Below, one piece after another: positions 26,317-59,739 of a DNA stretch of 64,000 nucleotides. The stretch is from a candidate division FCPU426 bacterium (lineage in GTDB: Bacteria; Oederibacteriota; Muellerivitia; Muellerivitales; Muellerivitaceae). Under the pieces are notes generated by a model. That model ran no database searches and was not told the DNA's origin. It saw only the letters and a list, made by a program, of their open reading frames with translations. Within the stretch, counting starts at the first letter, position 1. Every line of letters begins with the position of its first letter. The stretch spans positions 3,733 through 67,732 of the forward strand of contig CAWKIY010000029.1 of assembly GCA_963849245.1 (NCBI GenBank), given 5' to 3'. The translations under genes and the position numbers were made by a program.

Positions 26317-29300
26317 TTAGCGGAGGACTAAGACCTTAAGGATTTTACTGGATTTCACCGGGCCTGTGACCTGGACTTTTAAATAGTAAATACCGTTGGC
26401 TACTGTATTTCCCCACGCGTCATTTAGATTCCAATCGAGAACCGCGTTATTTCCGAAATTAGTGTCCGTATGATCCTGAACCTTTCGGAAGGCGGTCGTA
26501 TAAACAGTCCATTCAACCGTGGAACCGGCGGGAATCTGTAACTGGATAGACACCGGCCCCGCATGGACCGGATTAGGATAGGGCAGCCCAATTACGACAG
26601 TCGAGCCTGGATTAGACGAAGCCGTCGCGGTCGAAGTCGGTGTGGAGGTATAGGTGAGGATGGGCGTTAAGGTCAAGGTAAGCGTTGAGGTAGGGCTGCT
26701 CGAAGGAGTGGAAGTCGCTGTAGCCGTAAGCGTATTGGTCAAAGTAGCGGTGAACGTATTCGTCGGGGTATTCGTTGAAGAATAAGTCGGGGTGGCCGTA
26801 TTGGTCGCGATAGGGGTCGGCGTCATCGTGGAAGTACTGGAGGCCGTCGGCGTTAACGTATCCGAAGCCGTGGCGGTCAGGGTTTGAGTCGACGTGGCCG
26901 TAGCACTGGGAGTATTGGTTGCCGTATTGGCCGCCGTAGGGGTATAGGTCCCCGGCAGGAAGGTATTTGTCGGTGTAATACTCAAAGTCATCGTCGCCGT
27001 CCCCGTTAAATTCAAAGTTGGGGTGAAGGTCACCGTTGGCGTAGCCGTGGGCGATCCCGCTGTTGGGGAAATCGTAATCGTCGGGGTGGCCGTCGGCGCG
27101 GCTGGCGTGGATGTATCCGTAGCCGTGTACGCCACCGTCAGGGTAGCGCTCGGAGTCATTGTCGCTGTCCCCGTTAAATCAAAGGTTGGAGTCAAGGTAA
27201 CGGTGGACGTGGAAGTCGGTGATCCCGCCGTTGGGGAGACCGTAATCGTCGGGGTGGCCGTAGGCGCGGCTGGCGTAGACGTATTCGTAGCCGTGTACAC
27301 CGCCGTCAGGGTAGCGCTCGGGGTTATTGTCGCCGTCCCGGTTAAATTCACAGTCAAAGTAAAGGTTGGAGTAGCCGTAGGCGCAACAAACGTAGATGTA
27401 TTCGTAGCCGTGGAAGTCACCGTTGGCGTGGCCGTAGGCGATCCTGCCGTTGGGGAAATCGTAATGGTCGGTGTTGCCGTCGGTAGAGACGGAGTGAATG
27501 TATCCGTAACGGTGTAAGTCGCCGTCGATGTGTTTACCAATGTCAGGGTAGCGCTTGGGGTCATCGTCGCTGTCCCGGTTAAATTCACAGTGGGAGTAGG
27601 GGTTACCGTTGGCGTGGCGGTAGGCGATCCTACTGTTGGAGAGACTGTAATCGTCGGGGTGGCCGTAGGCGCGGCTGGCGTGGATGTATTCGTAGCCGTG
27701 TACACCACTGTCAGGGTAGCGCTTGGGGTCATCGTCGCCGTTCCGGTTAAATTCACAGTCGGAGTGAAGCTGAAGGTTGATGTAACCGTAGGCGATCCCG
27801 CCGTTGGGGAAATTGTAATCGTCGGGGTGGCCGTAGGCACAACCGTGGTAAATGTACCCGTAACGGTGGATGTCACCGTCGACGTAGATACCGCCGTTAA
27901 GGTGAAAGTCGGAGTAGCCGTTGGGCTTCCCGGGGTCGGAGTGACCGTACTAGTTAAAGTCGGCGTGGCGGTCGGAGGCGCGTTCTCAAAATAAATATCA
28001 TCATAATCAATCGTCTCGTTCGATCCGCCTGTAGCCGGGCCGGCCACTAAAAAGCCCACATCCAAAACGGCCGCCCAATTGAACGTGCCGATACTCGAAT
28101 CCCAATTCGTCGAGTTGATCGGCAATACCACGTTCACCCAGGTATTCAGCATTGTGACTGAATATAAAACCGGCGAACCCGTTCCCCCGGTGTAGTAGCT
28201 CGTATCCGCCACTGAGTAACTACTGTTACTTGTCGCGCTTTGCATAAATACTTTGAACGTGACTGGAGAACTCGTATTGATCCAGAAGCTTAAGGACGCT
28301 GGGGCTGAAGGCGCGATACTTACCGCGTCCCCATAGTTATTGATTTGGGCGTAACCGGACTCGAAAGCGTATGCCGCTGTACCATTAGACCCGGTCCATG
28401 TTACGGCCATCTGGATTCCCCAGCTGCCTGAATGGACTTGGGTATTTTCCAAATACCCTGTTACCGCAGAATTAACTTCCCCAAAAGTTTGATCCATACT
28501 AGAAGAGACGACTGCCCCATTCGTATCGCCGTAGGGATCTCCTCCCTCGGGATAACTCGGATATTCCCAGTTCTCAAACACCATGCCCGAAATCGAAGGA
28601 GTTGGTGTAGCCGCAAAAGTGGAAGTACTCGTAGGAGTCAGGCTGATCGTGGCTGTCGACGTCATCGTTGATGTGGAACTGGATGTCATCGTAAACGTGG
28701 ATGTACCTGTTGGAACCACGGTATTAGTCAGTGAAGGCGTAAGCGTCGCCGTAACCACCAACGTCGGGGTATAGGTTCCCGGCAGGAAGGTATTTGTCGG
28801 CGTGGCGCTGGGGGTTATTGTCGCCGTCCCGGTTAAATTCAAAGTCGAAGTAAAGGTAAAGGTTGGAGTAGCCGTAGGCGCGGCAAACGTAGATGTATTC
28901 GTAGCCGTGGAAGTCACTGTTGACGTGGCTGTAGGCGAGCCTACTGTTGGGGAAACCGTAATCGTCGGTGTTGCCGTCGGTAGAGACGGTGTAAATGTAT
29001 CGGTAACTGTGTACGTCGCCGTCGAAGTTTCCACTGCTGTCAGGGTAGCGCTCGGGGTTATTGTCGCCGTCCCGGTTAAATTCGCAGTCAAAGTAAAGGT
29101 TGAAGTGGCCGTAGGCGATCCTGCCGTTGGGGAAATCGTAATGGTCGGTGTTGCCGTCGGTAGAGACGGAGTGAATGTATCCGTAACGGTGTAAGTCGCC
29201 GTCGATGTGTTTACCAATGTCAGGGTAGCGCTTGGGGTCATCGTCGCTGTCCCGGTTAAATTCACAGTGGGAGTAGGGGTTACCGTTGGCGTGGCGGTAG

Positions 29301-31116
29301 GCGATCCTACTGTTGGAGAGACTGTAATCGTCGGTGTTGCCGTAGGCGCGGGCGGCGTGGATGTATTCGTAGCCGTGTACACCGCCGTCGGGGTATAGGT
29401 TCCCGGAAGGAAGGTGTTCGTTGAGGTAAAAGTAACCGTGAAAGTACCCGTATTAGTCGGCGTAAAACTGCTGGTTAGGGTGGGCGTAAAGGTCGGCGTC
29501 GTAGTACTGGTTAGGGTTGTGGTCGAAGTAGCCGTAGTGGTTCCAGTCGCCGTGTTGGTAGAAGTAAGCGTCTTGGTCGGGGTGGAGGTCACCGTGGGGG
29601 CGACGTAACAAAAATTTAAATTATCGAAAAGAACCGTGGAAGAATAAGGGAATGTAGTAACCGACGCGGGACTCATCATCTCAAAATCTAAACTACGAAC
29701 GCCGGTGCCGTCATAGGTAATGGAGCTTAAATCCGCTATAACATTTGTCCACTGTCCGGCTGGCAGGCTTTGGGTAATGGTCACTACATGACTGGTCGTA
29801 TCGTAAATAACCACGTAGGATAAATTGATCGTTTGGGAAGGATTGATGTCAAAACTCAATTGAGTCGGATTGGAACCCATAGACTGGACATTAACGGCGG
29901 AGCCTCCACCGGCAACCCCGTCATAAACCTCCAATTGGGCCAAACCGCTGGGACCCGTGAAAGTAATCGCGTCCTGAAGACTGCCAACCGAGCCTCCATA
30001 GGTTTGAAGGGTATTCGTGTTCAACGTAACCGTTTGTGTCACAGAAGAGCTGACGACGAAATAACCGGTCGAGGGATTTGTCGTCCAAGGCGCCTCGTCA
30101 AAATCATCAAAATCAAAACAATTAGTCAAAACCGGAGTGCTGCTAGCCGTAGGAGTCGCTGTTGTTGTAGGTGTGGGAGTGCTTGTTGGAAGAGGCGTGA
30201 GGGTGTAAGTTCCAGGGGCGAAAGTATTAGTCGGGGTAAAGGTCGCCGTATTCGTCGGCGTTAACGTGGGAGTAGGCGCCGCAAAGCAAAAATTAAAGTT
30301 GTCTAAAAGAACCGTCGAAGAATAGGGATAAGTGCTCACCGATCCTGGGCTGGTGATGCCGAAATAAACCTGCACAACATCTGTGCCGTTGTAAGTGATC
30401 GAACTCAAGTCTACAACCACATTAGTCCATACACCGGCCGGAAGGGTTTGGTTCACGGGAACCGTATGTAAGGATGTGTCATAAACACCCACATTCGATA
30501 AGGTAATCACTTGGGAAGGATTGATATAAAAACTAAGTTTGGTTGGATTCGAACCCAGGTACTGCACATTAACGGCACCGCCAAAAGAAGCCCCGTTACC
30601 CACTCCCAACAATGCCAGATTACCAGCACCCGTGAAAGTAATTGCGTCCTGAAGGCTTCCTAAGGAACCACCATAGGTTTGAAGGCTATTGGTGTCCAAT
30701 GTAACGGCTTGAGTCGTGGAAGTATTAATTGGCTGGCACAAATAAGATGGGAAGCCCCCGCCAATCCATGGACTCTCGTCAAAATCATCAAAATTAAAAC
30801 AATTGGCCAAAGCGACCGTATTGGTGAAGGTAGGCGTATAGCTTCCGTTCGAGGTATTCGTGGGAGAAGGGGTGAAAGTCGCAGTTGGAGTACCCGTATT
30901 GAAAGGCGTAAAAGTAATCGTGGAAGTATAAGTCACCGTACCCGTAGCCGTCGGGGTAGCGGTAAGTCCCGGGGTATTGGTGGACGTACTGGTTGAAGTG
31001 AGGGTAGGCGTATTGGTGGCAAAGACAGGCAAGGCCCAACCCATGAAAAAAACAACCACGAAGCAGGCAAAAATGCCGGCATTCCAAAACAAAAATTTAT
31101 TTCCAAACGCTCTCAT
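26317..31116 (-). CDS. Giant (1599 aa) Thr/Pro-rich repetitive cell-surface protein. It has two CBM-like ~175-aa domains (xNCFxFDDFDExPW...) and a type-IX-secretion-like C-terminal sorting domain.
   Basis: Signal peptide. Two copies of the ..NCF(N/D)FDDFDE(S/A)PW...LQTYGGS(L/V)[11 protein letters not shown].. domain. Dozens of ~60-aa [23 protein letters not shown] repeat units. C-terminal [15 protein letters not shown]...TAFRKVQD...GIYYLKVQV...KILKVLVLR. Confidence 0.85.
27428..27656. repeat. 229-bp perfect direct repeat, copy 1, inside the adhesin gene. It is part of a longer array of ~180-bp coding repeats.
   Basis: Identical base for base to 29105-29333 by manual line-by-line comparison. 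Confidence 0.9.
29105..29333. repeat. 229-bp perfect direct repeat, copy 2, inside the adhesin gene
   Basis: Identical to 27428-27656. Flanking repeat units are related but diverged. Confidence 0.9.
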
Positions 31117-31348
31117 TTATATAACTTTCCTTTAAAACAATACCCCGCCCACGGCGGTTATTTCTTATTCATAGAACCAACAGGGAAAGGATTTTATCAC
31201 AAACCCCTAAAAGCATATCCCGTTTGTCCCCGCCCAGTTGAAATAGGCGAAAAAAGCGATTTCTTGATTCAATTTTTTACAGCTTCTTAACCCCAACCGC
31301 GTCACTCCTCAACATTTATCTCCAAGCACACTGGCCATCGTTTTCATA

Positions 31349-32704
31349 CTAGGGTGTAGCCTCCGGTACCACGCCTTTATACTTCTCAAGCCAATCCGCC
31401 AGGGACTTGGCTTCAGGTTTTAATTTGAGAACCTGCTCAAAACATTGAATGGCATAAGCCTTTTGATTGACACGGTAATACAAGTTCGCCAGCTGCCACC
31501 AAGCCTTAGCGTCTTGGGGATTCTCTTTGATTGCGGCTCGATAGGCTTCCGAGGCCTGAGTCCATTGGCCGTCCTGTTCCAATTTTTCACCGTTAGCCAC
31601 TTGGGGCGACAGCATGTCAAAGTGGACAGTCAGGGATTGTCCCCCAGCCCCGGCGGAAGACCCCGTAACCGGTTCGGGCTTCACCCCGGCTGTTACAGAC
31701 TGCGCCGTTGAAGCTTTCACCGACTGAGTCGCAGTGGATGTCGGCTGGGAAGGTCCGCCGAAACGATAAGTCAGGCTGATCCGGTTTGTGGCGCCTAAGT
31801 CGCCGAAGGGCACAAAGGCATAATCCAAACACAGCCCTGAGAAATCCACTCCGCCTCCGGCGCTAAAACCTTGAAGACCGTTGAGTCCGGTATCTTGTAA
31901 GACTCCCTGATAGCCTGCCCGGATAAAGTAGGTGGATTTGTAGGAAGCTTCCGCACCCAGATTGAACTCGCTCCCGTATTGGGGTTCATAGGAATAAGCG
32001 ACGGCCGTTAATACCGAGAAAGGGCCCTTGCTCGAAAAAAGTTTCGAAATCCCTAGTCTCAAGATAGAAGAGGCGGAAGCGCTGTTGGTCGTCGTACCGA
32101 AGTTCTCAAAAGAAGCCCCAAAGCGCCATCCCCCGGGGACAGCAAAGAGAAATCCCGCGTCCGCGTCAAAGAGATTGTAGGTATAAGAAGCCAATTGCTG
32201 GGAAGTGCCCCGCAAATCGAGCCCGATAGAAAATCCTTTGAAAAGCTCTAGGCCCATGCCCGCGCCCAAACCAAACTGATTGGCGCTACTCGAGGCCGCC
32301 AAGGTCCCATCCGCGTTACGACCCTGAAAGGTTCCGTAGTTCACCATCTGGGCGGTAAATCCCAACCCCATTCCCTTCATCAGGGGCAGACCCATGGTGA
32401 AAATATCCTGGGATATCCCATCCAAGCCAATAAGGTGATCCAACCCCAAATCATTTCCGCCCAAAGTCGCCAATCCGGCCGGGTTATAAAAAAGGGCTGA
32501 GGAATCATCCGCCACCGCGACGAAAGCGTTCCCCATCGCCACATCCCGGGCCGAGGCCCCGGCGCTTTCGAAGGGATCTTGAATAGAAGAGGTGGAAAGT
32601 GTCTGCGCCCCTATTGAACTAAAAGAGGCTGTCCCCAAGAACACGAAGAGGCCTAGCATAACTTTCATCGCTAACCCTTGCGGGCACTTCATGACGGGGC
32701 GCAT
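31349..32704 (-). CDS. FadL/PorV-like outer-membrane beta-barrel protein with C-terminal TPR extension
   Basis: Signal peptide MKVMLGLFVFLGTASFSSIGAQ. N-terminal block ..ARDVAMGNAFVAVADDSSALFYNPAGLA.. is typical of the FadL/PorV-like family. C-terminal ..AKAWWQLANLYYRVNQKAYAIQCFEQVLKLKPEA.. is a TPR repeat. The start ATG overlaps the stop of the upstream cargo gene (TAATG). Confidence 0.55.
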   Translation of the reverse strand: MRPVMKCPQGLAMKVMLGLFVFLGTASFSSIGAQTLSTSSIQDPFESAGASARDVAMGNAFVAVADDSSALFYNPAGLATLGGNDLGLDHLIGLDGISQDIFTMGLPLMKGMGLGFTAQMVNYGTFQGRNADGTLAASSSANQFGLGAGMGLELFKGFSIGLDLRGTSQQLASYTYNLFDADAGFLFAVPGGWRFGASFENFGTTTNSASASSILRLGISKLFSSKGPFSVLTAVAYSYEPQYGSEFNLGAEASYKSTYFIRAGYQGVLQDTGLNGLQGFSAGGGVDFSGLCLDYAFVPFGDLGATNRISLTYRFGGPSQPTSTATQSVKASTAQSVTAGVKPEPVTGSSAGAGGQSLTVHFDMLSPQVANGEKLEQDGQWTQASEAYRAAIKENPQDAKAWWQLANLYYRVNQKAYAIQCFEQVLKLKPEAKSLADWLEKYKGVVPEATP

Positions 32705-35580
32705 TAACGCGCCACCAGGAACTTCGACACGGGCACCGAGTCGGCACCGCCTGAGTCATAGTTCATGTTAATCAAGTACAAATACACCCCCGGCGCGTAA
32801 CCGGCGAAATTCAGGGTGCTGGTTTGGGCTCCGGCAGACTTGGTTTCCTGCTGAGTGCAAACCAATTGGCCGATGGCGTTAAAGATGCGAATTTTCACGG
32901 TTCCCGAATTGGCCATCCAATAGGCCAAGGTACCCGTCGTTCCCGTCACCGGCTCAGGGGCTATATAAGAACCTCCTGTTGGCGGCAGTTCTTTCAGGGG
33001 AAAGCCGGACGAAATGATAGGCGTAGCTGTCAGGGTCGGTGTGGGAGTAACGGAAACCGTTGGCGTAATCGTATTGGTAGGACTACTGGTTAAAGTAGCT
33101 GTTGAAGTAATAGAAGGTGTATTAGTCGGAACAGGGCTAAAAGTACCGGTAACTGTGGCTGTAAGAGTATTGGTAGATGTACTAGTTGGAGTATTCGTAA
33201 TCGAATTCGTGGGAGTGCTGGTCGGAATGTTGGTGGGTGTAATCGTGACAGTGTTGGTGACGGTTGGAGAGCTTCCTGGGCCAGGTGTATAAAAATCCGA
33301 CGCGTCGAATTTAGCTACGAAGGCATGTCCATAACTGCTAGTAGGGTCGCTAGTTTGATAGGCGCCGGAGGTCGTTGGGAAATTACTGGAATAAGCGTTC
33401 CCAGTCAAATAAATGTTTCCACTTCCGTCCATCGCCAAACCTGAACCCGAATCGGATTTATTCCCGCCCAAATAGGTCGAATAAGCTAGACTCGTACCCA
33501 GGGGACTCAATTCAGTGACAAAAGCATAGCTATTACCGCTGGAAGGACCGATAGTTTGGAAGGCCCCAGTTGTCGTCGGGAAATTAGTGGAGAAAGTTTG
33601 CCCCCCTACATAAATATCACCATTCCCGTCCAGTAGGATGCCATAACCTGAATCAGAGGTATTTCCGCCTAGGAAAGTGGAAAAGACCAACTGGGCGCTA
33701 CCGCTCGCCGAGGGGTTCAACTCGAGGACGAACGCAGGAACCCCTCCTGAGGGAAAGCTCGTTTGATAGGCTCCGGAAGTCGTTGGGAAATTGGATGAAC
33801 CGGTGCCTCCAGTCACATAAACATCATCGTTCCCATCCAAAGCCATGCCACGGAATATGTCATCATTACTTCCTCCTAAATAAGTGGAATAGACCAAGCC
33901 AGTTCCTGTTGGGTTCAACTCGGTTATGAAACCATGGTCCTTTCCAACAGCTGGATCACTGGTTTGATAGGCGCCGGAGGTCGTAGGAAAATTGCTGGCG
34001 AGAGTGCTCCCTATCACAAAAGCGTTTCCGCTCCCATCTACCGCAATCCCATTACAGGCATCCACCTCAGTATCAGTTCCACTGTAACTCCCCGTCAAAA
34101 AGGTGGAATAGACGAGGGCCGTTCCCGCCGGGTTGAATTCAAGAACAAAACCATGTTCATTGCCACTGGTAGGGGCGTCGGGATAACTAGTTTCGTAGGC
34201 CCCCGTCGTAGTCGGGAAATCATGGTTCGAAGTGTATCCCGCCACATAGGCATCTCCATTGGCATCCACCACAATGGCACTGCCGTCTTCATAATTACCG
34301 TCCAACGAAATATAGGTCGAATAAACCAACCCCGAGCCGGTTGAATTCAGTTCGGTCACAACACCATGGAAATTAACTGCGGTAGCGTTGGTTTCAAAGG
34401 CCCCTGCCGTCGTGGGATAGTCGACGGCAGAAGAGTCCCCCGTGATATAAGCGTTTCCACCATGCAATGCCAAAGCATTACCATCACAATAACCGTTTCC
34501 ACCCAAATAGGTGGAATAGACCAGGTTCGTTCCACTGGAATTCATTTCACTCACAAAAATTTGATAAGTGCCGCTGGTAGGATCGTTGGGTTGTTCAGCC
34601 CCCAAGGTCGTCGGAAAATTGGTAGAAGTGGTCGTGCCAACCACATAGGCGTCCCCGCTTCCGTCCACCGCAATACCCTGTCCAACGTCCAGATTATTCC
34701 CACCCAAATAAGTGGAATAATCTAATTGTGGGTCAATGATGAGTGGCTTGGATTTATCATAGACTCCAGCCTCAAAACCGATCATACTTTCGTTCTTCGG
34801 GGAGAACTTCCCTTCCACAGGAGTCCGGGTTCCCCCTTCCTCCTGGTAAAGAGTGGGAGCGTGAAAGACCAACTTCCGGGCTCCCACCGAAATTTCCAGG
34901 TTCCCCTCGGCGCTGACCTCTACCTTATCCGCACCCTCCACCTTCATGCGGATCGCGCCAGGGTCCGCTCCCGGTTTGACCGTGAAGTCATATTCCAACC
35001 TGCCCTGGTGGCCGTAATAGATCATGTCCACGCCCGGATAAACTTCCGAGGCCCGGATCTTAGCGTATTGGGGAATGTTGGCATGCCATTTGGAACGATC
35101 GTTACCGATGAAGTAATTGCTGATACCAGAAAGTTTTTCCAGACCCTGGAAGGACAGATTCTTTTGGACACCGGAAAGGGTAAGCCGCACCACGTCGTGG
35201 GACCCTGGCTTGGGGTGGAATTTCGAAAACTTTTGTCCTTTAGACTGGGGGTCGCCTGAAGATTTGGCTTCCGTCTTGTGAAGCGACAGCACAGCGCCCG
35301 AACCTGTTAAAAAGAGAGTGTAACCGGCTCCCTGGCTCAAAAATTGGACCCGGGAATCAGTCTGGCCTTCATTGGGCTCAAAGGCCAAAGGTAGTTTTCC
35401 ATAGTTTTGATTGAGATGGATTTGTTGGCTGGTAGGAACAGGAGCACGTTTTAATTTATTGGTTAGGACGTTACCCGAAGGGCCAAAACCAAACAAGAAC
35501 ATAGGAAGGGCCAGGAGGATAACAAGAGTACTGAATAAACGACGTGTCATTAATGATGCTCCCTCAAATAAAACTTTCAA
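32704..35580 (-). CDS. Secreted beta-propeller-repeat (SBBP-type) protein with Thr/Pro linker and type-IX-like C-terminal sorting domain
   Basis: About ten repeats of YSTYLGG..xD.G.GIA(V/L)D.SGNAYV.G.T.S.NFPTT. A TPTxT linker. C-terminal ..KIRIFNAIGQLV...PGVYLYLINMNYD...KFLVAR beta-sandwich tail. Confidence 0.8.
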   Translation of the reverse strand: MKVLFEGASLMTRRLFSTLVILLALPMFLFGFGPSGNVLTNKLKRAPVPTSQQIHLNQNYGKLPLAFEPNEGQTDSRVQFLSQGAGYTLFLTGSGAVLSLHKTEAKSSGDPQSKGQKFSKFHPKPGSHDVVRLTLSGVQKNLSFQGLEKLSGISNYFIGNDRSKWHANIPQYAKIRASEVYPGVDMIYYGHQGRLEYDFTVKPGADPGAIRMKVEGADKVEVSAEGNLEISVGARKLVFHAPTLYQEEGGTRTPVEGKFSPKNESMIGFEAGVYDKSKPLIIDPQLDYSTYLGGNNLDVGQGIAVDGSGDAYVVGTTTSTNFPTTLGAEQPNDPTSGTYQIFVSEMNSSGTNLVYSTYLGGNGYCDGNALALHGGNAYITGDSSAVDYPTTAGAFETNATAVNFHGVVTELNSTGSGLVYSTYISLDGNYEDGSAIVVDANGDAYVAGYTSNHDFPTTTGAYETSYPDAPTSGNEHGFVLEFNPAGTALVYSTFLTGSYSGTDTEVDACNGIAVDGSGNAFVIGSTLASNFPTTSGAYQTSDPAVGKDHGFITELNPTGTGLVYSTYLGGSNDDIFRGMALDGNDDVYVTGGTGSSNFPTTSGAYQTSFPSGGVPAFVLELNPSASGSAQLVFSTFLGGNTSDSGYGILLDGNGDIYVGGQTFSTNFPTTTGAFQTIGPSSGNSYAFVTELSPLGTSLAYSTYLGGNKSDSGSGLAMDGSGNIYLTGNAYSSNFPTTSGAYQTSDPTSSYGHAFVAKFDASDFYTPGPGSSPTVTNTVTITPTNIPTSTPTNSITNTPTSTSTNTLTATVTGTFSPVPTNTPSITSTATLTSSPTNTITPTVSVTPTPTLTATPIISSGFPLKELPPTGGSYIAPEPVTGTTGTLAYWMANSGTVKIRIFNAIGQLVCTQQETKSAGAQTSTLNFAGYAPGVYLYLINMNYDSGGADSVPVSKFLVAR

Positions 35581-35581
35581 A

Positions 35582-36304
35582 TTAACGAATCATTACTTCT
35601 TTACTCATCGAGTTGCCGTTCCCCTTGACCTCGATGTGGTATATCCCGGACGTCGCGGCCCGGTTTTGATCCAATAAACCATCCCATGTAAAGGCCCACT
35701 TCCCCACGGCCAGCGGCCCCTCATACAAACGCCGAACCTCGGTTCCATCCGGGCCCGTGATCCGCACCAAAATTGACCCTGCCGCCTCTTGATCCACCAC
35801 CACCCTGAGGTTTCGATAATCCGTATCGAAACCAGGGTTAGGAGGAGCCTGATCCATCCCCGCTGGCACCGGCGTGGCTCCATTCGGTATCGAAGGCGTC
35901 AACACCACGCTTTCCGTCGGGACCGGCGGAGGCCCGATCGGCTTTTCCGCTTTCCTAGAAACAGGAGCGATGATTTTCAATTCCGTCTGCGCGGGTACAG
36001 GCGCCATCACCGGTGACGAAACCACCACCGGCAAAGGCTGACTTTCAACCTGGGGCCAATAATGCCAAACACCCACTCCGCTCAAAACCACAACTGGCGC
36101 CCATCGGCCCCAGGACGATTTCAGAAACCGGGCCAGCTTTCCAGGCGCCTTGGGTTCGGGTAATCCGAATCCAAAATAAACCTTCTCCGCCTTTTGGGCG
36201 AAGCGCTCGGCGGCGTCCTCAGAGGAAGCTAACAGCTTCGCCAGGGCCTGGTCTTCGGCCTCGGTCAATTCGGAACGGAAGAATTTTTCGATCAGGTCAG
36301 CCAT
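35582..36304 (-). CDS. Anti-sigma factor (single-pass). Its periplasmic C-terminal domain resembles the cargo C-terminal sorting (FlgD-Ig-like) domain.
   Basis: N-terminal cytoplasmic anti-sigma segment, then TM WAPVVVLSGVGVWHYW, a Pro-rich linker, and a C-terminal ..GSILVRITGPDGTEVRRLYEG..WAFTWDGLLDQNRAATSGIYHIEVKGNGNSMSKEVMIR. Overlaps the sigma gene by 8 nt. Ends 1 nt before the next gene start. Confidence 0.6.
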   Translation of the reverse strand: MADLIEKFFRSELTEAEDQALAKLLASSEDAAERFAQKAEKVYFGFGLPEPKAPGKLARFLKSSWGRWAPVVVLSGVGVWHYWPQVESQPLPVVVSSPVMAPVPAQTELKIIAPVSRKAEKPIGPPPVPTESVVLTPSIPNGATPVPAGMDQAPPNPGFDTDYRNLRVVVDQEAAGSILVRITGPDGTEVRRLYEGPLAVGKWAFTWDGLLDQNRAATSGIYHIEVKGNGNSMSKEVMIR

Positions 36305-36875
36305 CGATAATCCCCCTTCTCCGGGCCGTCTTCAGCACCCTCTGTTTCAACTCGTCCTTACACCGGGCCAGCCGGGACATCACCGTTCCGATGGGAACCT
36401 TCAGGAATTTGGATAATTCGGCGTAATTTTTGTTCTGCCGGTCCCTCAGGTCCAAAATTTCACGGCAACGGTCCCCCAAAGCCTCAAGTTCAGACTTCAC
36501 AATTTGAAGAAGATCCCGCTTGTCCCCTTCCCTGACCTTTTCCGCGGCTTTTTCCACCGCGATTCCGTTGGTCAGGTTTTCCAGTTCCTCGTTAGCGTTC
36601 GCGACCTGGCGCTTTCGGCGCCGGATTCGGTCATAACAGCGGTAAACACAGATGCGGCGAAGCCAATGTAAAAAAGTGGAACGGAATTGAAATTTCGAGA
36701 GATCCTGAAGGGCCGCCAGGAAGGTTTCCTGGACCACGTCTTCCACTTCCGGGTCGCCATTTCCCAGAATGAAAGTCGCGATGCGGTAGAGTTTAGGGCG
36801 GTAGGTACGAAAGAAAAACCGCTCGGCGGAGCTGTCCTTTTCCAGGAGCCCCCGAACCAAGTCACGATCATCCAA
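36297..36875 (-). CDS. ECF-type RNA polymerase sigma factor (sigma-70 regions 2 and 4)
   Basis: ..ERFFFRTYRPKLYRIATFILGNGDPEVEDVVQETFLAALQDL.. is region 2. ..YAELSKFLKVPIGTVMSRLARCKDELKQRV is the region-4 HTH. 192 aa. Confidence 0.85.
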   Translation of the reverse strand: MDDRDLVRGLLEKDSSAERFFFRTYRPKLYRIATFILGNGDPEVEDVVQETFLAALQDLSKFQFRSTFLHWLRRICVYRCYDRIRRRKRQVANANEELENLTNGIAVEKAAEKVREGDKRDLLQIVKSELEALGDRCREILDLRDRQNKNYAELSKFLKVPIGTVMSRLARCKDELKQRVLKTARRRGIIDG

Positions 36876-36989
36876 TAGTGATCCCCCATCGCCATAATCC
36901 CTCCCCTCTATCTACTAAGGGTGGGAAGCTCGTTATTTATTCCAAAAAAATATTAAGTCTTTAAATATTCATGAAAATATCAGAAAAAC

Positions 36990-42295: not shown

Positions 42296-42709
42296 TTACA
42301 CGGAATAAAGCATGAGATAAACAATCACACCCGTAACTGAGACATAAAGCCAGATAGGAAAAGTGATCCGGGCCAGTTTTCGGTGTTTCGCGAAATTGCC
42401 CTTTAAAGCCTGCCGAAGGGTCATGATGGCCAAAACCGGTACCAAAACCGCCAGCGGGGTATGCGTCCAAAGAATCGTGAAATAAAGAATACGGATGAGA
42501 CCCTGGCCTTGAAAATAAACAATGCCCGCGTTGGCGTGGTAATAAAGATAGCAGCCTAGAAAAATAATCGAAATGGAAAAGGCCGTGATCATGCAAAACC
42601 GGTGGGCCTTTTGATTTTTATTTTTAATAAACCAAAAACCCAGTAATAAAAAAAACGCGCTGGCCCCGTTTAAACAGGCGTTCAAGGTGGGGAAAAAAGA
42701 AAGACTCAT
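42296..42709 (-). CDS. DUF420 family membrane protein (commonly linked to heme-copper oxidase biogenesis loci)
   Basis: 137 aa, 4 TM. Overlaps the SCO gene by 4 nt. Confidence 0.6.
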   Translation of the reverse strand: MSLSFFPTLNACLNGASAFFLLLGFWFIKNKNQKAHRFCMITAFSISIIFLGCYLYYHANAGIVYFQGQGLIRILYFTILWTHTPLAVLVPVLAIMTLRQALKGNFAKHRKLARITFPIWLYVSVTGVIVYLMLYSV

Positions 42710-43329
42710 GATTTGCTCCTGAATTTCATAAGATAACGGATATCCTGCTTCAGCTTTTTCACCTCATCCTGCTCTTGCCCGTCATAAAAACCGCGGATAA
42801 CGCCCTTCCCATCCACCAAAACCAGCCGGGTGGAATGGATAAAATCAAACCCCGGCCCGCCTTGGGGGTCATCCTGGGCGGTCAGCTTAAATCCCTCCCG
42901 AATAACCTGATAAAGGTCTTTCTTCTTTCCGGTTAGGAAGAACCATTGGTTTTCATCCGCTTGCAGATTACCCGCGTATTCCTTTAAAACCGGGGGGGTG
43001 TCTTTTTCCGGGTCGACGCTGAACGAAACGAGTTTAAACTCACTGTTATTTTTCCAGTCATCCTGTAAAAGTCTTAATTCTTGGCTCAGCAGGGGGCATT
43101 GACCGGCACAACTGGTAAAAATAAAATCGGCCACCCAAACCTTGCCTTGAAGCTGAGCACTGGTGAAGGTTTTTCCATTTTCATCCTCAAAAGAAAAATC
43201 CGGCGCTTTTGCGATCATCTTTTGAAGTTTGTCCGAAGGCCGGCCCATCCAAACGCGATAGCTTAAAAAGACCAGCCCCAAGAGGGCCAGAAGAGCTAAA
43301 AGCCACTGCTTCCAAGCAGAAACTTTCAT
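42706..43329 (-). CDS. SCO1/SenC family copper chaperone (thioredoxin fold)
   Basis: N-terminal TM. FIFTSCAGQCP is a CxxxC motif. Downstream conserved H in ..FIHSTRLVLVD... Confidence 0.85.
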   Translation of the reverse strand: MKVSAWKQWLLALLALLGLVFLSYRVWMGRPSDKLQKMIAKAPDFSFEDENGKTFTSAQLQGKVWVADFIFTSCAGQCPLLSQELRLLQDDWKNNSEFKLVSFSVDPEKDTPPVLKEYAGNLQADENQWFFLTGKKKDLYQVIREGFKLTAQDDPQGGPGFDFIHSTRLVLVDGKGVIRGFYDGQEQDEVKKLKQDIRYLMKFRSKS

Positions 43330-43331
43330 AC

Positions 43332-44078
43332 TTATCGCCTTTCCTTACTCTTCGCGACAACCCAAGAAGATAGTCCGTAAAAGAAAATTGAAAAACCAAG
43401 CAACACGATCAAACACAAGGATAAAGAAGGGACCTGGCTCAAATCCGATGTGGGGAAAAGTCCCCGGCGGACTCCCGCCACTCCATAAGTAAAGGGATTC
43501 ACGAACATGAAGGCTTTCAACCAAGGAGAAGCGCTCACCGCGAAAATGGCGCCCGAGGCCATCCACATCGGCAGAAGAACCATGTTCATGATGGCGTGAA
43601 ATCCCGGAGGCGAATCAATTTTCCAGGCCAGCCAAAAGCCCATCGCCGTGACAACAAAGGAAATTAAAAAAAGCGAAAGCAAAAGTCCCAAAAAGGGAAT
43701 AACCACAAAAACCGCTCCAACGCTCCAGGCGAATGCCAAAATGAGGAGCCCTTGAAGGGTCGCTAACGTAGCGCCTCCCAGTATCTTACCCATCACAATC
43801 GCCGCCCGGCTGACCGGCGCGACCATGACCGATTGTAAAAAACCCGCTTGTCGGTCTTCAATGATGGATGCCGTGGAAAAAATACAGGAAAACATCATAC
43901 TCATGACAATAGTCCCCGGAAAAAAATAAGCCCGGTAAGCCGCTCCGCCGATGCCTGTCCCCAACACCGCCCAAAACAAAAGTGCCGTTCCCAAAGCCCC
44001 GAACCAACGGCTGGGAACCCGGTAAAACCGGACCAGTTCTCTTTGCCATAAGGTATAAACCGCCATCCCAAAGTTCAT
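43332..44078 (-). CDS. ABC-2 type transporter permease
   Basis: 6-TM ABC-2 topology. 4-nt overlap with the ATPase gene. Confidence 0.75.
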   Translation of the reverse strand: MNFGMAVYTLWQRELVRFYRVPSRWFGALGTALLFWAVLGTGIGGAAYRAYFFPGTIVMSMMFSCIFSTASIIEDRQAGFLQSVMVAPVSRAAIVMGKILGGATLATLQGLLILAFAWSVGAVFVVIPFLGLLLSLFLISFVVTAMGFWLAWKIDSPPGFHAIMNMVLLPMWMASGAIFAVSASPWLKAFMFVNPFTYGVAGVRRGLFPTSDLSQVPSLSLCLIVLLGFSIFFYGLSSWVVAKSKERR

Positions 44079-45004
44079 TCCTTGTCCTCCGAAAAACGCC
44101 GTCCGGTTTTATGGATAAAAACGTCCTCCAGCGTAGGAGGACCCAGCGTCAGGGACAATATCTGATCATGAAAAGCTTCCATCAGTGGTTCGATAAGGCG
44201 GTGTACTTTCGGTTGCTCAATTTGAATAAGATCGCCGACCAGCTTCGTTTTCACATTGAGTTTCGTTTCAATTTGAACGGAGAGCCTGTCCGGCTGGCGG
44301 CTCTTTACCCTTAAAACTTCGCCGCTAATTTGAGCTTTGAGCTCTTCGGGCCCGCCTAAAGCGACTTTCTCTCCCTGATCCAGAATAAGAAGCCGGTCGC
44401 ACCGGTCCGCTTCCTCAAGATAATGGGTCGTTACCAAAACGGTCATGCCTTCGGATTTTCGAAGTTCTTCCAGATGACCCCAAAATTCTTTGCGGGCAGC
44501 GGGGTCAAGTCCGGTAGAGGGTTCATCCAAGATCATCAGTTCGGGATCATTTAAAAGAGCCTTCGCTAACTCCACCCGGCGCTGCAACCCACCGGAAAGA
44601 GTTTCTACCTTATCCTTAGCCCGGTCCCTTAAGCCTAACCGTTCCAAATCCCGGTCGATACGGTATTTCAAATCTCGGCCCATCAATCCGTAAAGGTGAC
44701 CCTGATGCTGAAGGTTTTCACGAACTTTCAACTTTTTATCTAATGCGGGAAGCTGAAAAACAATCCCCATTTTCCGCCGGATGGTCATTTTATCTTTGGT
44801 TAAATCAAGGCCAAAGAGTTTGACTTGGCCTGGCTGGGGAGAAAAAAGGGTGGAGAGAATTTTAAAGGTGGTGCTTTTGCCCCCGCCGTTGGGACCTAAA
44901 AAACCGAAAATTTCTCCTTTCTCGACTGAAAAGGTAAGGTTATGCAGGGCGGTTTTGGCGCCATATTGGTAGGTCAAATTTTCAACTTCAACTAGGTTTT
45001 CCAC
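44075..45004 (-). CDS. ABC transporter ATP-binding protein
   Basis: Walker A GPNGGGKST, signature LSGGLQRRVELAKAL, Walker B LMILDEPSTGLD, H-loop VLVTTHY. Confidence 0.9.
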   Translation of the reverse strand: MENLVEVENLTYQYGAKTALHNLTFSVEKGEIFGFLGPNGGGKSTTFKILSTLFSPQPGQVKLFGLDLTKDKMTIRRKMGIVFQLPALDKKLKVRENLQHQGHLYGLMGRDLKYRIDRDLERLGLRDRAKDKVETLSGGLQRRVELAKALLNDPELMILDEPSTGLDPAARKEFWGHLEELRKSEGMTVLVTTHYLEEADRCDRLLILDQGEKVALGGPEELKAQISGEVLRVKSRQPDRLSVQIETKLNVKTKLVGDLIQIEQPKVHRLIEPLMEAFHDQILSLTLGPPTLEDVFIHKTGRRFSEDKE

Positions 45005-45029
45005 TTCACGCCTTCACTTTCAGTTCAAC

Positions 45030-45884
45030 TTATTTTTTATCGATCGCCATCACCAGAAAAAGAAGGGGTAAATAGGTAATGGAAAACCAAAATAAACCCT
45101 TCGCGTAGCGCATGGTTTTGTACCGGGCCAGCGCCAAACTGTAGCCGAGGAAAACCAAACTTAGCACCAGAGCGCACCAAAAATAAAGGGGCCCGGCAAG
45201 GTGAAGATAGGTCGGCAAAAGGGAAACCGGCACCAGCGCCATGGCATAAGCCACCGCCATAAGCCCGGTGGTTTCGCCTTGGGGGTCAATAACCGACAGC
45301 ATGGGAAAGCCCGCCCGGGCGTAATCTTCCCGGTAGATCCAGCCAATAGCTAAGAAGTGTGGCATCTGCCACAAAAAAAGGATGGAAAAAAGCATCCAGC
45401 CGCCTGGCCCGATTTCATTTTGTACCGCGGCCCATCCCATTAATGGAGGAATCGCCCCCGGAATGGCGCCCACCACCGTGCAAAGCGAGGTTATTCTTTT
45501 AAGCGGTGTATACATAATGACGTAGCTGATCAAAGCCGCCAAACCTAATAGCGCCGAAAGATCGTTCACCTTCCAAAATAAAAGCCCCACTCCCGCGGCG
45601 GAAAGACTGAGTCCAAACCAGAAGGCCTTCAGATTGGAGATTCGTCCCGAGGGCAAAGGCCGCTTTTGGGTTCGGCGCATTTTACGGTCGGCTTCCACTT
45701 CCAGCCATTGATTCAGCGCTCCGCAGCCAGCGGCCACTGCGGTGGAACCTAAAAGGGTAAAAAAAAGTAAAACCCCATCCAACGGTTTCGGACTTCCCAA
45801 ATAAAAACCCGCTAAAGTGGTGACAATGGCTTCGGAATTTAACCGGGGTTTGGTGAGAGTGATATAGTCCCTAAAATTCTTCAA
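45030..45884 (-). CDS. ctaB: Protoheme IX farnesyltransferase (heme O synthase, UbiA family)
   Basis: UbiA motif ..GCGALNQWLEVEADRKMRRTQKRPLPSGRIS... 9 TM. Overlaps ctaA by 4 nt. Confidence 0.9.
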   Translation of the reverse strand: MKNFRDYITLTKPRLNSEAIVTTLAGFYLGSPKPLDGVLLFFTLLGSTAVAAGCGALNQWLEVEADRKMRRTQKRPLPSGRISNLKAFWFGLSLSAAGVGLLFWKVNDLSALLGLAALISYVIMYTPLKRITSLCTVVGAIPGAIPPLMGWAAVQNEIGPGGWMLFSILFLWQMPHFLAIGWIYREDYARAGFPMLSVIDPQGETTGLMAVAYAMALVPVSLLPTYLHLAGPLYFWCALVLSLVFLGYSLALARYKTMRYAKGLFWFSITYLPLLFLVMAIDKK

Positions 45885-46813
45885 ACGGGGCTTCCCTTCT
45901 TAAAAACATGAAAGCTATTCAAGGTTAGAACTAGCATAGAAGCCAAAAGGGCTGCGCCCGTAATCACATGTACCGAAGTAGGGATGATTGATTTTTCAGT
46001 AGCAATTACCAAAATTCCCAAAAAACACTGCAGCCAAACCAATAATCCCGCCAAAGCCGCCGGCCAAAAGAGGCTCTTTTCCTCGGGATAATATTTGCAA
46101 ACGCGAAACGCGGTAAAGTTTACTAGAACGAGAACGATAAACGCCCCCACCCGGGTATGACTAAATTGCAAAATGATAAAAGAAGACCATTGCTGGGGTA
46201 AAAAATTGCCGAAAGAGAGGGGAAAATCCGGAATCGCCAGTCCCGCTCCGCTATGGCGGGTCACGGCCCCTACCACAATTTGAAAATAAATAACGAGAGT
46301 CGCCGCGAGAGCGATCTTAGGAATAAAAGGAACAGGCGCTAAAAGCCTTTGTGGTTTCTCTTCGATCCACAACCTTGAAGTTACGAGCGTCAAAGTGATG
46401 ATAAGACAAAAGAAAATCTGGGCCAGCCCCGCGTGGCTCACTGAAACCGCTGTGGGCAGATGCAGTAGCACCGTCACTCCTCCCAGTACCGCTTGAAGCA
46501 GTACCGCTCCCATGGCGCACCAGGCTAATTTTTTAACTGAGGAGCGTTGTTCCACTTTTTGGGTATAAACGGCCAGACCTAGCATTAAAATCGCCACCGT
46601 ACCAGCGACCATGCGGTGACCATGCTCAAACAAAACGCCGCCAGTCATGGGTGGAAAAAACTTTCCGAATGAAAGCGGCCAGTCCGGAACCGCCAAACTC
46701 GAACCCGTGCTGGTGACCAGAGCCCCCGCCAACAACAACACAAAAGTACAGCCCGCCGTTATTAGAGCGTAACGGTAAAGAGTGGGTTGAAAACGGATAG
46801 GGGCACCGATCAT
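45881..46813 (-). CDS. ctaA: Heme A synthase (CtaA/COX15 family)
   Basis: 8-TM protein with conserved His pairs (..FEHGHRMVAG.., ..VSHAGLAQ.., ..TRHSGAG..) in CtaA-like arrangement. Confidence 0.8.
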   Translation of the reverse strand: MIGAPIRFQPTLYRYALITAGCTFVLLLAGALVTSTGSSLAVPDWPLSFGKFFPPMTGGVLFEHGHRMVAGTVAILMLGLAVYTQKVEQRSSVKKLAWCAMGAVLLQAVLGGVTVLLHLPTAVSVSHAGLAQIFFCLIITLTLVTSRLWIEEKPQRLLAPVPFIPKIALAATLVIYFQIVVGAVTRHSGAGLAIPDFPLSFGNFLPQQWSSFIILQFSHTRVGAFIVLVLVNFTAFRVCKYYPEEKSLFWPAALAGLLVWLQCFLGILVIATEKSIIPTSVHVITGAALLASMLVLTLNSFHVFKKGSPV

Positions 46814-46900
46814 TGGCTTTTAGTCCCTCAAGATGTTTAAAAAAAGATGGCCCCGGGGGTTTTCCCCGGAGCCATCAAAATCTCGAATAAAATCTTTAAC

Positions 46901-47716: not shown

Positions 47717-47851
47717 AAGACCCTCTTCGGCGTCGAAAACAGGATTTCCAAAACTGGTTCAGCTTCGAGGATAAAATCCACTGAATTTCTAGAATGGAAA
47801 TCGATACGTCAATCTACTCCCGCTCACTTTGGAAAAGCAAGCGGGGAGGAT

Positions 47852-50656: not shown

Positions 50657-50671
50657 GGCTTTATCCTTACG

Positions 50672-56267: not shown

Positions 56268-56430
56268 AACCGCGATTTCAAAACCTTTGGCATAAGGTTC
56301 TCTGTCGCAAAGTCTATCAATGGTTTTGAATTTTCGCCAAGGCTAACGGGATCAAGAATATCTTTTAAGCGGTTAAAACGCGCGAATCCGAATGGATTGA
56401 TCTAAAAATATTTTCATTTCAAGAAAAATT

Positions 56431-59613: not shown

Positions 59614-59739
59614 TGAACTGGTTTCTCCTAGGAACTGCCATTCCCCAAATCTTGAATTTTATCCGAAAAAATTATTTTCAACGCCGCCATCCGGGCAAAA
59701 AACGGCCGAACTTCTTTTAAAGCTTCCTAATCAAACCTT

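Follow-up and report, generated by a model that had tools for sequence, protein, structure and literature searches.

Described systems closest to the locus

In the PorA–PorY–PorX–SigP pathway of P. gingivalis (PMC7712824, PMC12152298), an Ig-like C-terminal domain (CTD) of T9SS (type IX secretion system) type serves as a periplasmic signal, and an autoregulated ECF sigma factor acts downstream, governing secretion-related genes. The original prediction for the locus described here, that a sorting-type domain feeding into sigma factor control had not been characterised, is out of date in this respect, since the PorA CTD is a periplasmic ligand for PorY upstream of SigP (PMC7712824, PMC12152298). 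In P. gingivalis, however, the CTD sits on a separate cargo, a histidine kinase does the sensing and PorX activates the sigma factor. In the window (the whole stretch of DNA analysed, 64,000 nucleotides), by contrast, a FlgD_ig domain is fused straight to an anti-sigma-like protein and is locked genetically to a PorV-like barrel carrying a TPR domain; neither PorX nor PorY was seen in the module. The literature found for PorV together with anti-sigma factors consisted only of P. gingivalis papers and unrelated matter.

The FecI/FecR/FecA system (PMC9249621, PMC11637429) is similar in its three-part logic, operon layout and positive autoregulation, sharing with the window a sigma factor, a single-pass anti-sigma protein one domain of which lies in the periplasm, and an outer-membrane barrel extended on its periplasmic side. 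FecA, a TonB-dependent receptor, has 22 strands and its signalling domain is N-terminal, whereas the window barrel, of FadL/PorV type, has 14 strands and bears a TPR at its C-terminus. The window anti-sigma is not FecR-like and, unlike in FecIRA, a CTD cargo is an obligatory fourth partner; no FecR or TonB-dependent receptor domains were found in the module, which places it outside FecIRA as defined by these domains.

T9SS shuttles (PMC12618676) offer a further parallel: here, too, a barrel of the PorV/PorQ family is used, and the gene for cargo with a particular CTD adjoins that for a dedicated outer-membrane partner. Linkage of cargo genes to those of cognate shuttle proteins has precedent, with PorV serving type A CTDs and PorP/SprF serving type B CTDs (PMC12618676). 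The window barrel differs from these shuttles in scoring below the equivalog cutoffs, in its TPR extension and in being coupled to a sigma/anti-sigma pair. For the Ig domain of the anti-sigma-like protein, the best match in both sequence profile and structure is the FlgD hook cap (PF13860; PDB 3osv, 7bhq). Unlike FlgD, it has no flagellar context, lies behind a transmembrane anchor and is not accompanied by the other FlgD domains.

SigI/RsgI modules are polysaccharide sensors that induce secreted glycoside hydrolases. Cellulolytic clostridia carry several such sigma/anti-sigma modules, each with a different carbohydrate-binding module (CBM), which is possibly a similar logic (PMC6582324). In RsgI, the CBM lies within the anti-sigma and the envelope is Gram-positive, whereas the window module has a separate CTD cargo with an outer-membrane barrel in between.

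Organisation of the four-gene locus

The four open reading frames proposed for this region proved to be real, all on the (-) strand and with their coordinates unchanged. Their features, in the direction of transcription, are as follows, where "type 2" denotes the CTD subtype on the adjacent SBBP operon cargo and "type 1" the genome's bulk CTD type (1599-aa protein, GH16, GH18).

36916..36943, (-) strand: putative autoregulated ECF-type promoter, GGAATAAA-N15-CCTTA, -35/-10-like (motif in relatives)
36297..36875, (-) strand: ECF sigma factor, 192 aa, TTG start (Sigma70_r2/r4, TIGR02937)
36119..36304, (-) strand: cytoplasmic N-terminal helical domain of the anti-sigma-like protein, aa 1–62 (AF2 helices, position)
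36062..36115, (-) strand: predicted transmembrane helix of the anti-sigma-like protein, aa 64–81 (AF2, hydrophobicity)
35822..36058, (-) strand: Pro-rich disordered periplasmic tether of the anti-sigma-like protein, aa 83–161 (low pLDDT)
35585..35821, (-) strand: periplasmic FlgD_ig Ig-like beta-sandwich of the anti-sigma-like protein, aa 162–240
32704..35550, (-) strand: DUF7948 + SBBP beta-propeller cargo, secreted, 948 aa counted from ATG (Pfam, Shine-Dalgarno)
32707..32970, (-) strand: sorting domain of type 2 in the C-terminal 88 aa of the operon cargo (TIGR04183, PF18962)
31757..32569, (-) strand: PorV/PorQ-family 14-stranded outer-membrane barrel, aa 46–316 (NF033709, AF2, Foldseek)
31613..31750, (-) strand: low-complexity tether between barrel and TPR, aa 319–364 (pLDDT 25–30)
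31370..31609, (-) strand: C-terminal TPR domain of the barrel protein, aa 366–445, predicted periplasmic (TPR_2, TPR_11, TPR_1)

As first described, the sigma and anti-sigma genes overlap by 8 nt (ATGGCTGA) and TAATG is common to the cargo stop and barrel start. The 1-nt gap reported between the anti-sigma and cargo genes holds only with a TTG start (the open reading frame itself reaches back to TTG at 35580) and not if the downstream ATG is the start. This ATG, 31 nt downstream at 35550, is the one picked by the gene caller; it is preceded by a GAGGGAG Shine-Dalgarno sequence, and the cargo signal peptide (MTRRLFSTLVILLALPMFLFG) begins there.

The sigma factor has regions 2 and 4 only in about 190 aa, as in ECF (group 4) sigma-70 proteins (Sigma70_r2, 55.8 bits; Sigma70_r4, 26 bits, Pfam), and scores 81.2 bits on TIGR02937 (cutoff 42.9); it reached none of the equivalog cutoffs.

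Conservation of the module

Co-occurrence analysis, a check proposed together with the original prediction, recovered sigma factor, FlgD_ig anti-sigma, PorV-TPR barrel and CTD cargo, the latter of type 2, in every locus with enough sequence: ~15 distinct loci, or 19 if overlapping contigs are counted. In searches anchored on the anti-sigma, the barrel was present wherever the contig reached (window, L002, L003, L005–L008, L013, L014, L016, L017, L019, L024, L026 and L028), and a search anchored on the barrel found an ECF sigma and FlgD_ig anti-sigma immediately upstream in 4/4 contexts. Three gene orders were seen, namely sigma/anti-sigma/cargo/barrel, sigma/anti-sigma/barrel/cargo (L011, L012) and cargo/barrel/sigma/anti-sigma (L014), indicating that the linkage survives rearrangement. 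Across loci, the folded domains are 40–53% identical (type-2 CTD, barrel TPR and anti-sigma Ig each at ~40–44%), and the tethers are 20–27% identical and variable in length. The bodies of the module cargo vary and are usually of lectin, CBM or propeller type, comprising SBBP, PA14+CBM9, L-type lectin, Laminin_G_3 and CBM_3. The type-2 CTD was seen only in module-linked cargo across all loci, and module cargo always carries it.

These data speak for the four genes being a conserved module dedicated to regulation and not neighbours by chance, although the linkage as such could reflect co-regulation only. An alternative reading is an ordinary envelope-stress ECF pair, whose Ig domain would sense an unrelated cue such as cell-wall or membrane damage, with barrel and cargo as mere regulon members nearby. 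ECF sigma factors paired with an anti-sigma whose periplasmic domain is uncharacterised are very common, and FlgD_ig is a generic module that also forms internal repeats. We nevertheless regard this as highly unlikely, because the link to a single CTD subtype and to a barrel whose TPR extension is not seen on Bacteroidota PorV is invariant in all informative loci and through three gene orders.

The anti-sigma-like protein

The gene directly downstream of the sigma gene encodes a short helical domain and one transmembrane helix, as for a translationally coupled anti-sigma factor, and the two genes overlap or abut in related loci too. The N-terminal domain, modelled by AF2 as four short helices within aa 2–62, is 53% identical across loci. 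In the window protein, this domain had no Pfam match and a PDB profile search returned nothing significant; 1/18 N-terminal domains of the family matches zf-HC2 (E = 0.009), and the window protein shows neither HxxxCxxC nor the profile of a class I ASD / zf-HC2 protein. It matches no known anti-sigma family, and we infer from its position, size and topology, and from the conservation of the 8-nt overlap, that this small membrane protein acts as the anti-sigma of the ECF sigma factor.

AF2 places the transmembrane helix at residues 64–81, and the basic residues ahead of it predict N-in/C-out topology; the protein has no signal peptide and would be held by this N-in anchor. A strongly hydrophobic 19-mer occupies the same position in 125/164 relatives. 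It is followed by a disordered linker (pLDDT <50), 20% identical across loci and 38–92 aa in length, and then by the folded C-terminal domain, which has an Ig-like sandwich fold, scores 34 bits on FlgD_ig PF13860 (above the gathering threshold of 27) and has FlgD as its top structural match. Giant proteins likewise contain this domain, as internal repeats.

An exhaustive search returned 185 cluster representatives at E <= 1e-30, at least about 130 of them with anti-sigma size and layout (190–340 aa). This ruled out a tiny family of 15–29 members, the size given by a word-index protein search. The combination of an anti-sigma with a FlgD Ig-like domain was not found in the literature, and FlgD, PorV and SBBP all go unmentioned in the ECF reclassification paper.

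The PorV-like barrel and its TPR extension

The barrel belongs to the PorV/PorQ family as defined by the subfamily model PorV_fam NF033709 (103 bits, cutoff 90) and has 14 strands in the AF2 model. It falls well below the Bacteroidota equivalog models, giving 31.9 against a cutoff of 250 for PorV NF033710 and 60.2 against 220 for PorQ NF033711. In Foldseek, two T9SS translocon structures from F. johnsoniae, 8gl6 and 6h3i, rank first, each with its chain F (E = 1e-13, TM 0.63), and FadL ranks below these. We take chain F of these SprA translocon complexes to be PorV.

A tether of low confidence (pLDDT 25–30), 27% identical across loci and 33–101 aa in length, joins the barrel to a TPR domain of five helices (pLDDT 87–92, AF2). 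The TPR fusion had been described as unique to the window's barrel, which did not hold: it is conserved in at least 14 homologues, and every barrel homologue belonging to the module has it. The TPR could also serve cargo handling or barrel assembly instead of signalling.

SprA/Sov, PorK/L/M/N and PorU were not found in the 64-kb window or in the domain-scanned or annotated flanks; the short metagenome loci L015–L030 were scanned with module HMMs only.

Cargo tails and the Ig domain of the anti-sigma

The operon cargo combines DUF7948 (217 bits) with SBBP (143 bits). Its CTD scores 26.9 bits on TIGR04183 (cutoff 23) and, on PF18962, 26.3 bits in the whole protein (cutoff 27) and 31.0 bits as an isolated domain, so that a profile score above cutoff, a C-terminal position and a signal peptide together mark the tail of this SBBP protein as a type-A-like T9SS sorting domain. 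The anti-sigma does not qualify as type A: it gives 14.3 bits on TIGR04183 against the same cutoff of 23 (E = 0.029), and three members of its family did not match PF18962 (Por_Secre_tail) even at E <= 10. HMMs of both cargo CTD types left the anti-sigma unmatched (E > 1 in 705 ORFs), and an HMM of the anti-sigma CTD found nothing significant in the cargo.

Remote homology to the type-1 CTDs emerges only when profiles are compared with each other on the basis of a deep alignment. The profile built from 164 anti-sigma CTDs matched type-1 CTDs at 86.8% probability in hhalign (E = 4e-6, 70 columns in register), compared with 0.3–1.5% for reversed-sequence nulls. Against the type-2 CTD, the same profile reached 11.7% over 32 columns, and comparisons ranged from 3 to 12%. 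The original prediction that the anti-sigma's outer domain resembles the cargo tails is thus correct at the superfamily level, for type 1, but fails for the cargo of its own operon. The likeness to T9SS CTDs, a shared broad Ig-like fold and superfamily, is real only at that level; judged from profile comparison, the domain is a remote homologue of type-1 CTDs. It mimics none of the neighbouring cargo tails closely, and the one encoded in its own operon least.

This bears on the possibility that the Ig domain is read as a T9SS CTD, with secretion capacity setting sigma activity, either because it vies with cargo for access to the shuttle barrel or the translocon, or because a PorU-like sortase makes in it the site-1 cut of regulated proteolysis. 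Besides the remote homology to type-1 CTDs, it would fit with the cargo CTDs of relatives, which score on both FlgD_ig and Por_Secre_tail, and with inner-membrane-tethered PorA, which signals through its CTD in P. gingivalis (PMC12152298). The anti-sigma domain, however, shows essentially no likeness to the type-2 CTD encoded alongside it, with which it would have to compete, and has neither a Por_Secre_tail match nor the N-terminal xPxP motif of cargo CTDs. PorV in the SprA–PorV structures meets CTDs at the translocon, not in the periplasm, which also counts against such mimicry. Some tethers, at only 38–48 aa, seem too short to span the periplasm and outer membrane.

The C-terminus of the anti-sigma argues in the same direction. 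The protein is not built like a type A cargo, which is soluble and Sec-exported and carries its domain, last strand intact, at the extreme C-terminus; 81/164 relatives have a tail of 1–14 residues past the last strand, and the complete relatives P0007 and P0010 are without that strand (P0014 may be a fragment). In L002, no alternative frame restores the missing strand. The last CTD strands are required both for secretion and for PorA signalling (PMC12152298). On balance, we consider that reading the Ig domain as a sorting signal is improbable by either route. Of the feedback circuit first proposed, the regulatory module is supported and the sorting-domain mimic is weakened.

A putative promoter of the ECF sigma factor

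A conserved ECF-type motif, GGAATAAA-N14-15-CACTA-like, was found ahead of every sigma gene; 16 related loci have it at this place, a short way upstream. In 342 kb, 26 strict matches were observed versus 0.6 expected: 16 before sigma genes, 2 before barrel genes, 1 before type-1 cargo, 5 intergenic and ahead of the module's neighbouring genes, and 2 apparently by chance. A relaxed site precedes a GH30 xylanase gene adjoining the CBM9 cargo in L008, and a further site lies ahead of a neighbouring reprolysin gene in L013. A scan of the region for generic sigma-70 promoters and terminators gave results at chance level.

A candidate promoter sequence for recognition by the sigma factor is GGAATAAATAACGAGCTTCCCACCCTTAG. 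A search upstream of cargo genes, as originally suggested, did not bear out wider control in the window, whose single match is the one ahead of the sigma gene; even with one mismatch allowed, the motif is absent before the genes for the 1599-aa, GH16, GH18 and expansin-like cargo. There is accordingly no sign of control over the window's other surface cargo, and the regulon in the window may be the operon alone.

A possible route of signalling across the envelope

Taken as a whole, the locus looks like an undescribed link between surface-protein export or sensing and gene control. We put at somewhat short of an even chance that its four co-inherited parts constitute an autoregulated, self-contained envelope-signalling module that works across the envelope, and such signalling by TPR–Ig contact, with FecIRA-like logic, is favoured over strict sorting-signal mimicry. 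The barrel would be a dedicated shuttle or anchor for its cognate type-2 CTD cargo, paralleling PorV and PorP/SprF, and its tethered periplasmic TPR would contact the tethered Ig domain of the anti-sigma. The state of the barrel, whether loaded or unloaded with cargo, or with cargo on an external ligand, may then be relayed across the periplasm by this contact, altering the stability or conformation of the anti-sigma so that sigma is released. Freed sigma would transcribe its own operon from the GGAATAAA-N14-15-C(A/C)(C/T)TA promoter and, in relatives, also the genes for barrel or cargo, together with the gene that follows, for a secreted enzyme or adhesin. Contact between an outer-membrane transducer and an anti-sigma has precedent in cell-surface signalling (PMC11637429). 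Mirror-tree and charge-complementarity arguments would be uninformative here, given shared phylogeny and near-neutral charges. A bolder proposal, possible but doubtful, is that the module represents a previously unrecognised, TonB-independent class of cell-surface signalling, in which a PorV-like shuttle barrel would keep at the surface a CTD protein of lectin or CBM type and report its loading or ligand state through the tethered TPR to the Ig anti-sigma, thereby switching on the ECF sigma.

The same parts might instead form a periplasmic sensor of cargo tails, PorA/PorY-like or RseA/DegS-like, in which unexported type-2 CTDs accumulating in the periplasm are bound by the Ig domain, or by the TPR, which would then release the anti-sigma; barrel and cargo expression would then match export flux, and any outside ligand would be irrelevant. 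The co-travelling of type-2 CTD, barrel TPR and anti-sigma Ig at similar levels of identity is consistent with this, as are the position of barrel and cargo under sigma's putative promoter and the binding of the PorA CTD to periplasmic PorY, a proposed report of export failure (PMC12152298). The varied lectin- and CBM-like cargo bodies, and the motif sites before neighbouring hydrolases (L008 GH30, L013 reprolysin), are nevertheless better suited to substrate sensing than to pure flux control, and although the present data do not separate an export-flux stimulus from surface-ligand sensing, we think a sensor of this kind rather unlikely.

If the coupling is functional, trans-envelope TPR–Ig signalling would be a new wiring for ECF sigma biology and type IX-like secretion, and would extend what was found for PorA, namely that domains of sorting type can act as signals as well. 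For the ECF field, it would add a new anti-sigma family with a FlgD_ig sensor and a defined, obligate outer-membrane partner; for type IX-like secretion, a PorV-family barrel that carries a periplasmic TPR, along with its cognate subclass of CTD, suited to asking how shuttles recognise tails and signal to the cell interior. With small parts and a clear promoter motif, the hypothesis lends itself to direct tests in a heterologous host, uncultured as the organisms are. Duplicated modules with SBBP, PA14-CBM9, L-type lectin, LamG and CBM3 cargo would, if this is true, amount to a substrate-sensor array comparable to the sigma/anti-sigma systems of Bacteroides PULs or the clostridial RsgI systems, and type-IX-like sorting would extend to a candidate phylum left unplaced by NCBI. 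To our knowledge, a T9SS has not been described in this candidate phylum, and the literature on FCPU426 gives no biology. The FCPU426 relatives form an uncultured soil lineage, filed by NCBI among unplaced candidate phyla.

Organisation and conservation of the module

Four minus-strand genes follow one another head to tail:

36297–36875, minus strand: ECF sigma factor (Sigma70_r2 and r4; TIGR02937, 81 bits)
35582–36304, minus strand: anti-sigma-like protein, 240 aa, starting within the end of the sigma gene
likely ATG start at 35550, minus strand: cargo, a DUF7948 + SBBP beta-propeller protein
minus strand, last gene: barrel, 451 aa (NF033709, PorV/PorQ family, 103 bits, cutoff 90), with a TPR domain at its end

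As originally predicted, the sigma and anti-sigma genes overlap by 8 nt (ATGGCTGA at the sigma stop) and the cargo stop overlaps the start of the barrel gene in TAATG. The proposed 1-nt gap between anti-sigma and cargo exists only with a TTG start; the likely ATG at 35550, which has GAGGGAG upstream and yields a clean signal peptide, leaves a spacer of 31 nt. A GC-rich hairpin (CCGCCGTGGGCGG, 31145–31157) followed by a T-run lies ~190 nt past the barrel stop and ~30 nt ahead of the ATG of a 1599-aa gene. If this hairpin terminates the operon, as it may, the space available to a promoter of that gene would be small.

Genomic contexts were examined starting from both the anti-sigma protein and the barrel, giving 19 informative loci (~15 clearly distinct, the counts including some overlapping metagenome contigs). 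In all loci with enough flanking DNA we find an ECF sigma factor and the anti-sigma together with a PorV-family barrel that ends in a TPR and a cargo bearing one particular C-terminal sorting domain (type 2, below). Cargo precedes barrel in most; the order is inverted in two loci (L011 and L012), and L014 has its cargo and barrel genes upstream of sigma. The four parts are therefore strictly co-inherited through rearrangements. The cargo bodies differ (SBBP, PA14+CBM9, L-type lectin, Laminin_G_3, CBM_3). Across 11 loci the folded parts share 40–53% identity, and both tethers, of widely different lengths (38–92 aa in the anti-sigma, 33–101 aa in the barrel), share 20–27%.

The anti-sigma domain and the cargo tails

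An AlphaFold2 model of the anti-sigma, built on a 15-sequence alignment, comprises short N-terminal helices (aa 2–62, pLDDT 65–76), a transmembrane helix (aa 64–81), a Pro-rich disordered stretch (aa 83–161) and a confident beta-sandwich (aa 166–239, pLDDT 85–91). An N-in, C-out topology is predicted because basic residues precede the transmembrane helix. Since the N-terminal domain matched none of the anti-sigma models, we infer the anti-sigma role from the protein's size and topology, the position of its gene and the conserved overlap of that gene with sigma. At its C-terminus the protein carries a FlgD_ig domain (PF13860, 34 bits, cutoff 27), which reaches only E = 0.029 against TIGR04183.

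With an exhaustive HMMER search we obtained 185 cluster representatives (E <= 1e-30), versus 15–29 relatives from a word-indexed protein search, which strongly underestimates the size of this divergent family. Among the 150 representatives listed out of the 185, at least ~130 are of anti-sigma size (190–340 aa), and most of these span the whole profile. Named relatives come from candidate division FCPU426 MAGs, and two others from MAGs labelled Proteobacteria. Giant proteins contain this domain type too, as 9–13 internal repeats. In a WOR-1 MAG (METM01000016; L009 4757–17784), several internal FlgD_ig repeats of a 4033-aa protein match the anti-sigma domain profile at 30 bits, and a 330-aa PorV-like barrel without TPR follows directly.

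The cargo tails of the window and related loci fall into two subtypes. Type 1 (YPNP...RKVQD...GN.LANGLYY...KLLVLR) is carried by the 1599-aa, GH16, GH18 and expansin-like proteins. Type 2 (YxAPxP...GTVxIRxFN...APGVYxY...YDSG...KFxV) has the SBBP cargo as its sole carrier in the window and was not found outside modules there or in the related loci. In Pfam searches the isolated cargo tails have Por_Secre_tail as top match and a weak match to FlgD_ig; tails of relatives match both, and anti-sigma domains match FlgD_ig only. Sequence HMMs of the cargo tails miss the anti-sigma, and the reverse search fails too. In profile-profile comparison (hhalign, with a 164-sequence anti-sigma alignment), the anti-sigma domain matched type 1 with 86.8% probability (E = 4e-6, 70 columns in register) and type 2 with 11.7% (32 columns), against 94.9% between types 1 and 2 and 0.3–1.5% for reversed-sequence nulls. 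On these results the likeness noted in the original prediction is real at the level of superfamily and fold; it does not extend to a mimicry specific to the neighbouring tails, and mimicry of the tail in its own operon (type 2) is the least supported.

This bears on the proposal that the anti-sigma end is itself handled as a sorting signal. That reading is possible but not the best supported, being weakened by the missing similarity to the cognate tail, the missing Por_Secre_tail signature, variable or extended C-termini, short tethers in some members and loss of the last strand in others. About half of the relatives stop exactly at the last strand, and 81/164 carry tails of 1–14 residues; the complete proteins P0007 and P0010 carry an internal duplication and are missing the last strand. 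The duplication (~23 aa inside the Ig domain; P0007, P0010, L002 2018–2782) together with the strand loss may represent strand replacement; none of the alternative frames checked in L002 restores the strand. A further relative, P0014, also ends ahead of the last strand and may be a fragment.

The barrel

The AlphaFold2 model has 14 strands followed by a disordered linker (aa 319–364, pLDDT ~27) and five TPR helices (aa 367–444, pLDDT ~90). In the PDB it most closely matches chain F, taken from its length to be PorV, of the two Flavobacterium T9SS translocon structures (8gl6 and 6h3i; E = 1e-13, TM 0.63), with FadL and TodX ranking behind. Scores far under the equivalog cutoffs of Bacteroidota PorV and PorQ mark the barrel, by sequence, as a family member and not an orthologue. 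Both termini of FadL/PorV-type barrels are periplasmic, which should place the TPR on that side of the outer membrane.

An Elusimicrobia MAG homologue (P0033, 503 aa) is fused to HEAT repeats and has no TPR; helical-repeat periplasmic extensions may be more widespread among PorV-family barrels. At L023 4953–5921 a TPR-less PorV-like barrel (82 bits against the barrel profile) directly follows a large type-1 cargo, ~1.5 kb upstream of a sigma/anti-sigma pair, which suggests separate barrels for the two tail subtypes. A 458-aa protein (L013 5162–6538, minus strand) has the opposite domain order, with an N-terminal TPR and a beta-rich C-terminal region whose last residue is F, and gives no match to the barrel HMM.

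A shared promoter motif

Upstream of each sigma gene lies an ECF-like −35/−10 pair, GGAATAA(A/T)-N12–16-C(A/C)(C/T)T(A/T). Strict matches numbered 26 against 0.6 expected from shuffles (342 kb, window plus loci): 16 directly before sigma genes, two before the barrel genes of L011 and L012, which are set apart from the anti-sigma, one ahead of a type-1 cargo gene in L013 and five in intergenic positions ahead of the module's neighbouring genes; the other two look like chance. Relaxed matches precede a cargo (L003), NHL genes (L002) and a GH30 xylanase adjoining a PA14-CBM9 cargo (L008). This putative promoter would be autoregulatory and would also reach barrel, cargo and adjacent secreted-protein genes. 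In the window, even with one mismatch allowed, it occurs once (36916–36943); the other surface cargo genes lack the anticipated motif, and the visible regulon here is therefore the operon.

A model for the module and its precedents

The predicted topology places two folded domains in the periplasm, each on a flexible tether from a different membrane. The barrel would be a dedicated shuttle or anchor for type-2-tailed cargo, and its TPR would contact the anti-sigma Ig domain, relaying the state of barrel or cargo to sigma. The stimulus could be a surface ligand bound by lectin- or CBM-type cargo, a reading favoured by the diversity of cargo bodies and by the pairing of CBM9 with GH30 in L008; by analogy with PorA/PorY, it could instead be periplasmic flux of type-2 tails.

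Such a scheme would amount to Fec-like logic with unrelated parts. Fec-type cell-surface signalling is a functional analogy: unlike it, the module has neither a TonB-dependent transducer nor FecR, and did not test as a member. PorA is the closest published precedent, and because of it the general claim that no such mechanism is known falls. Cognate pairs of cargo and shuttle genes are also known, in the case of type B CTDs and PorP/SprF (PMC12618676). In the literature searched we found no anti-sigma that is fused directly to an Ig/CTD-superfamily domain and locked to a PorV-TPR barrel. The original observation was largely correct: the module is real and conserved, a variant of envelope signalling by ECF sigma/anti-sigma pairs that is tied to PorV-family sorting, and apparently an undescribed one.

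Other genes in the window

26317–31116, minus strand: 1599-aa secreted Thr/Pro-rich protein with a type-1 tail
54969–62340, minus strand: three type-1 cargo genes in a row (GH16, GH18 and an expansin-EXLX1-like 866-aa protein)
42706–51772 and 14610–15065, minus strand: respiratory cluster plus a type IV pilin-like gene (GFTLIELMIVV...)

Five proteins with sorting domains in 64 kb suggest a large surface or secreted glycan-degrading repertoire. The 1599-aa protein has three repeated ~170-aa modules (CFNFDDFDE...LDNFNFC) and long TPT-type linkers; several antisense ORFs at its gene are spurious products of low-complexity repeats. The respiratory cluster encodes a 934-aa multi-haem cytochrome c, a b-type cytochrome membrane protein, SCO1, CtaA and CtaB.
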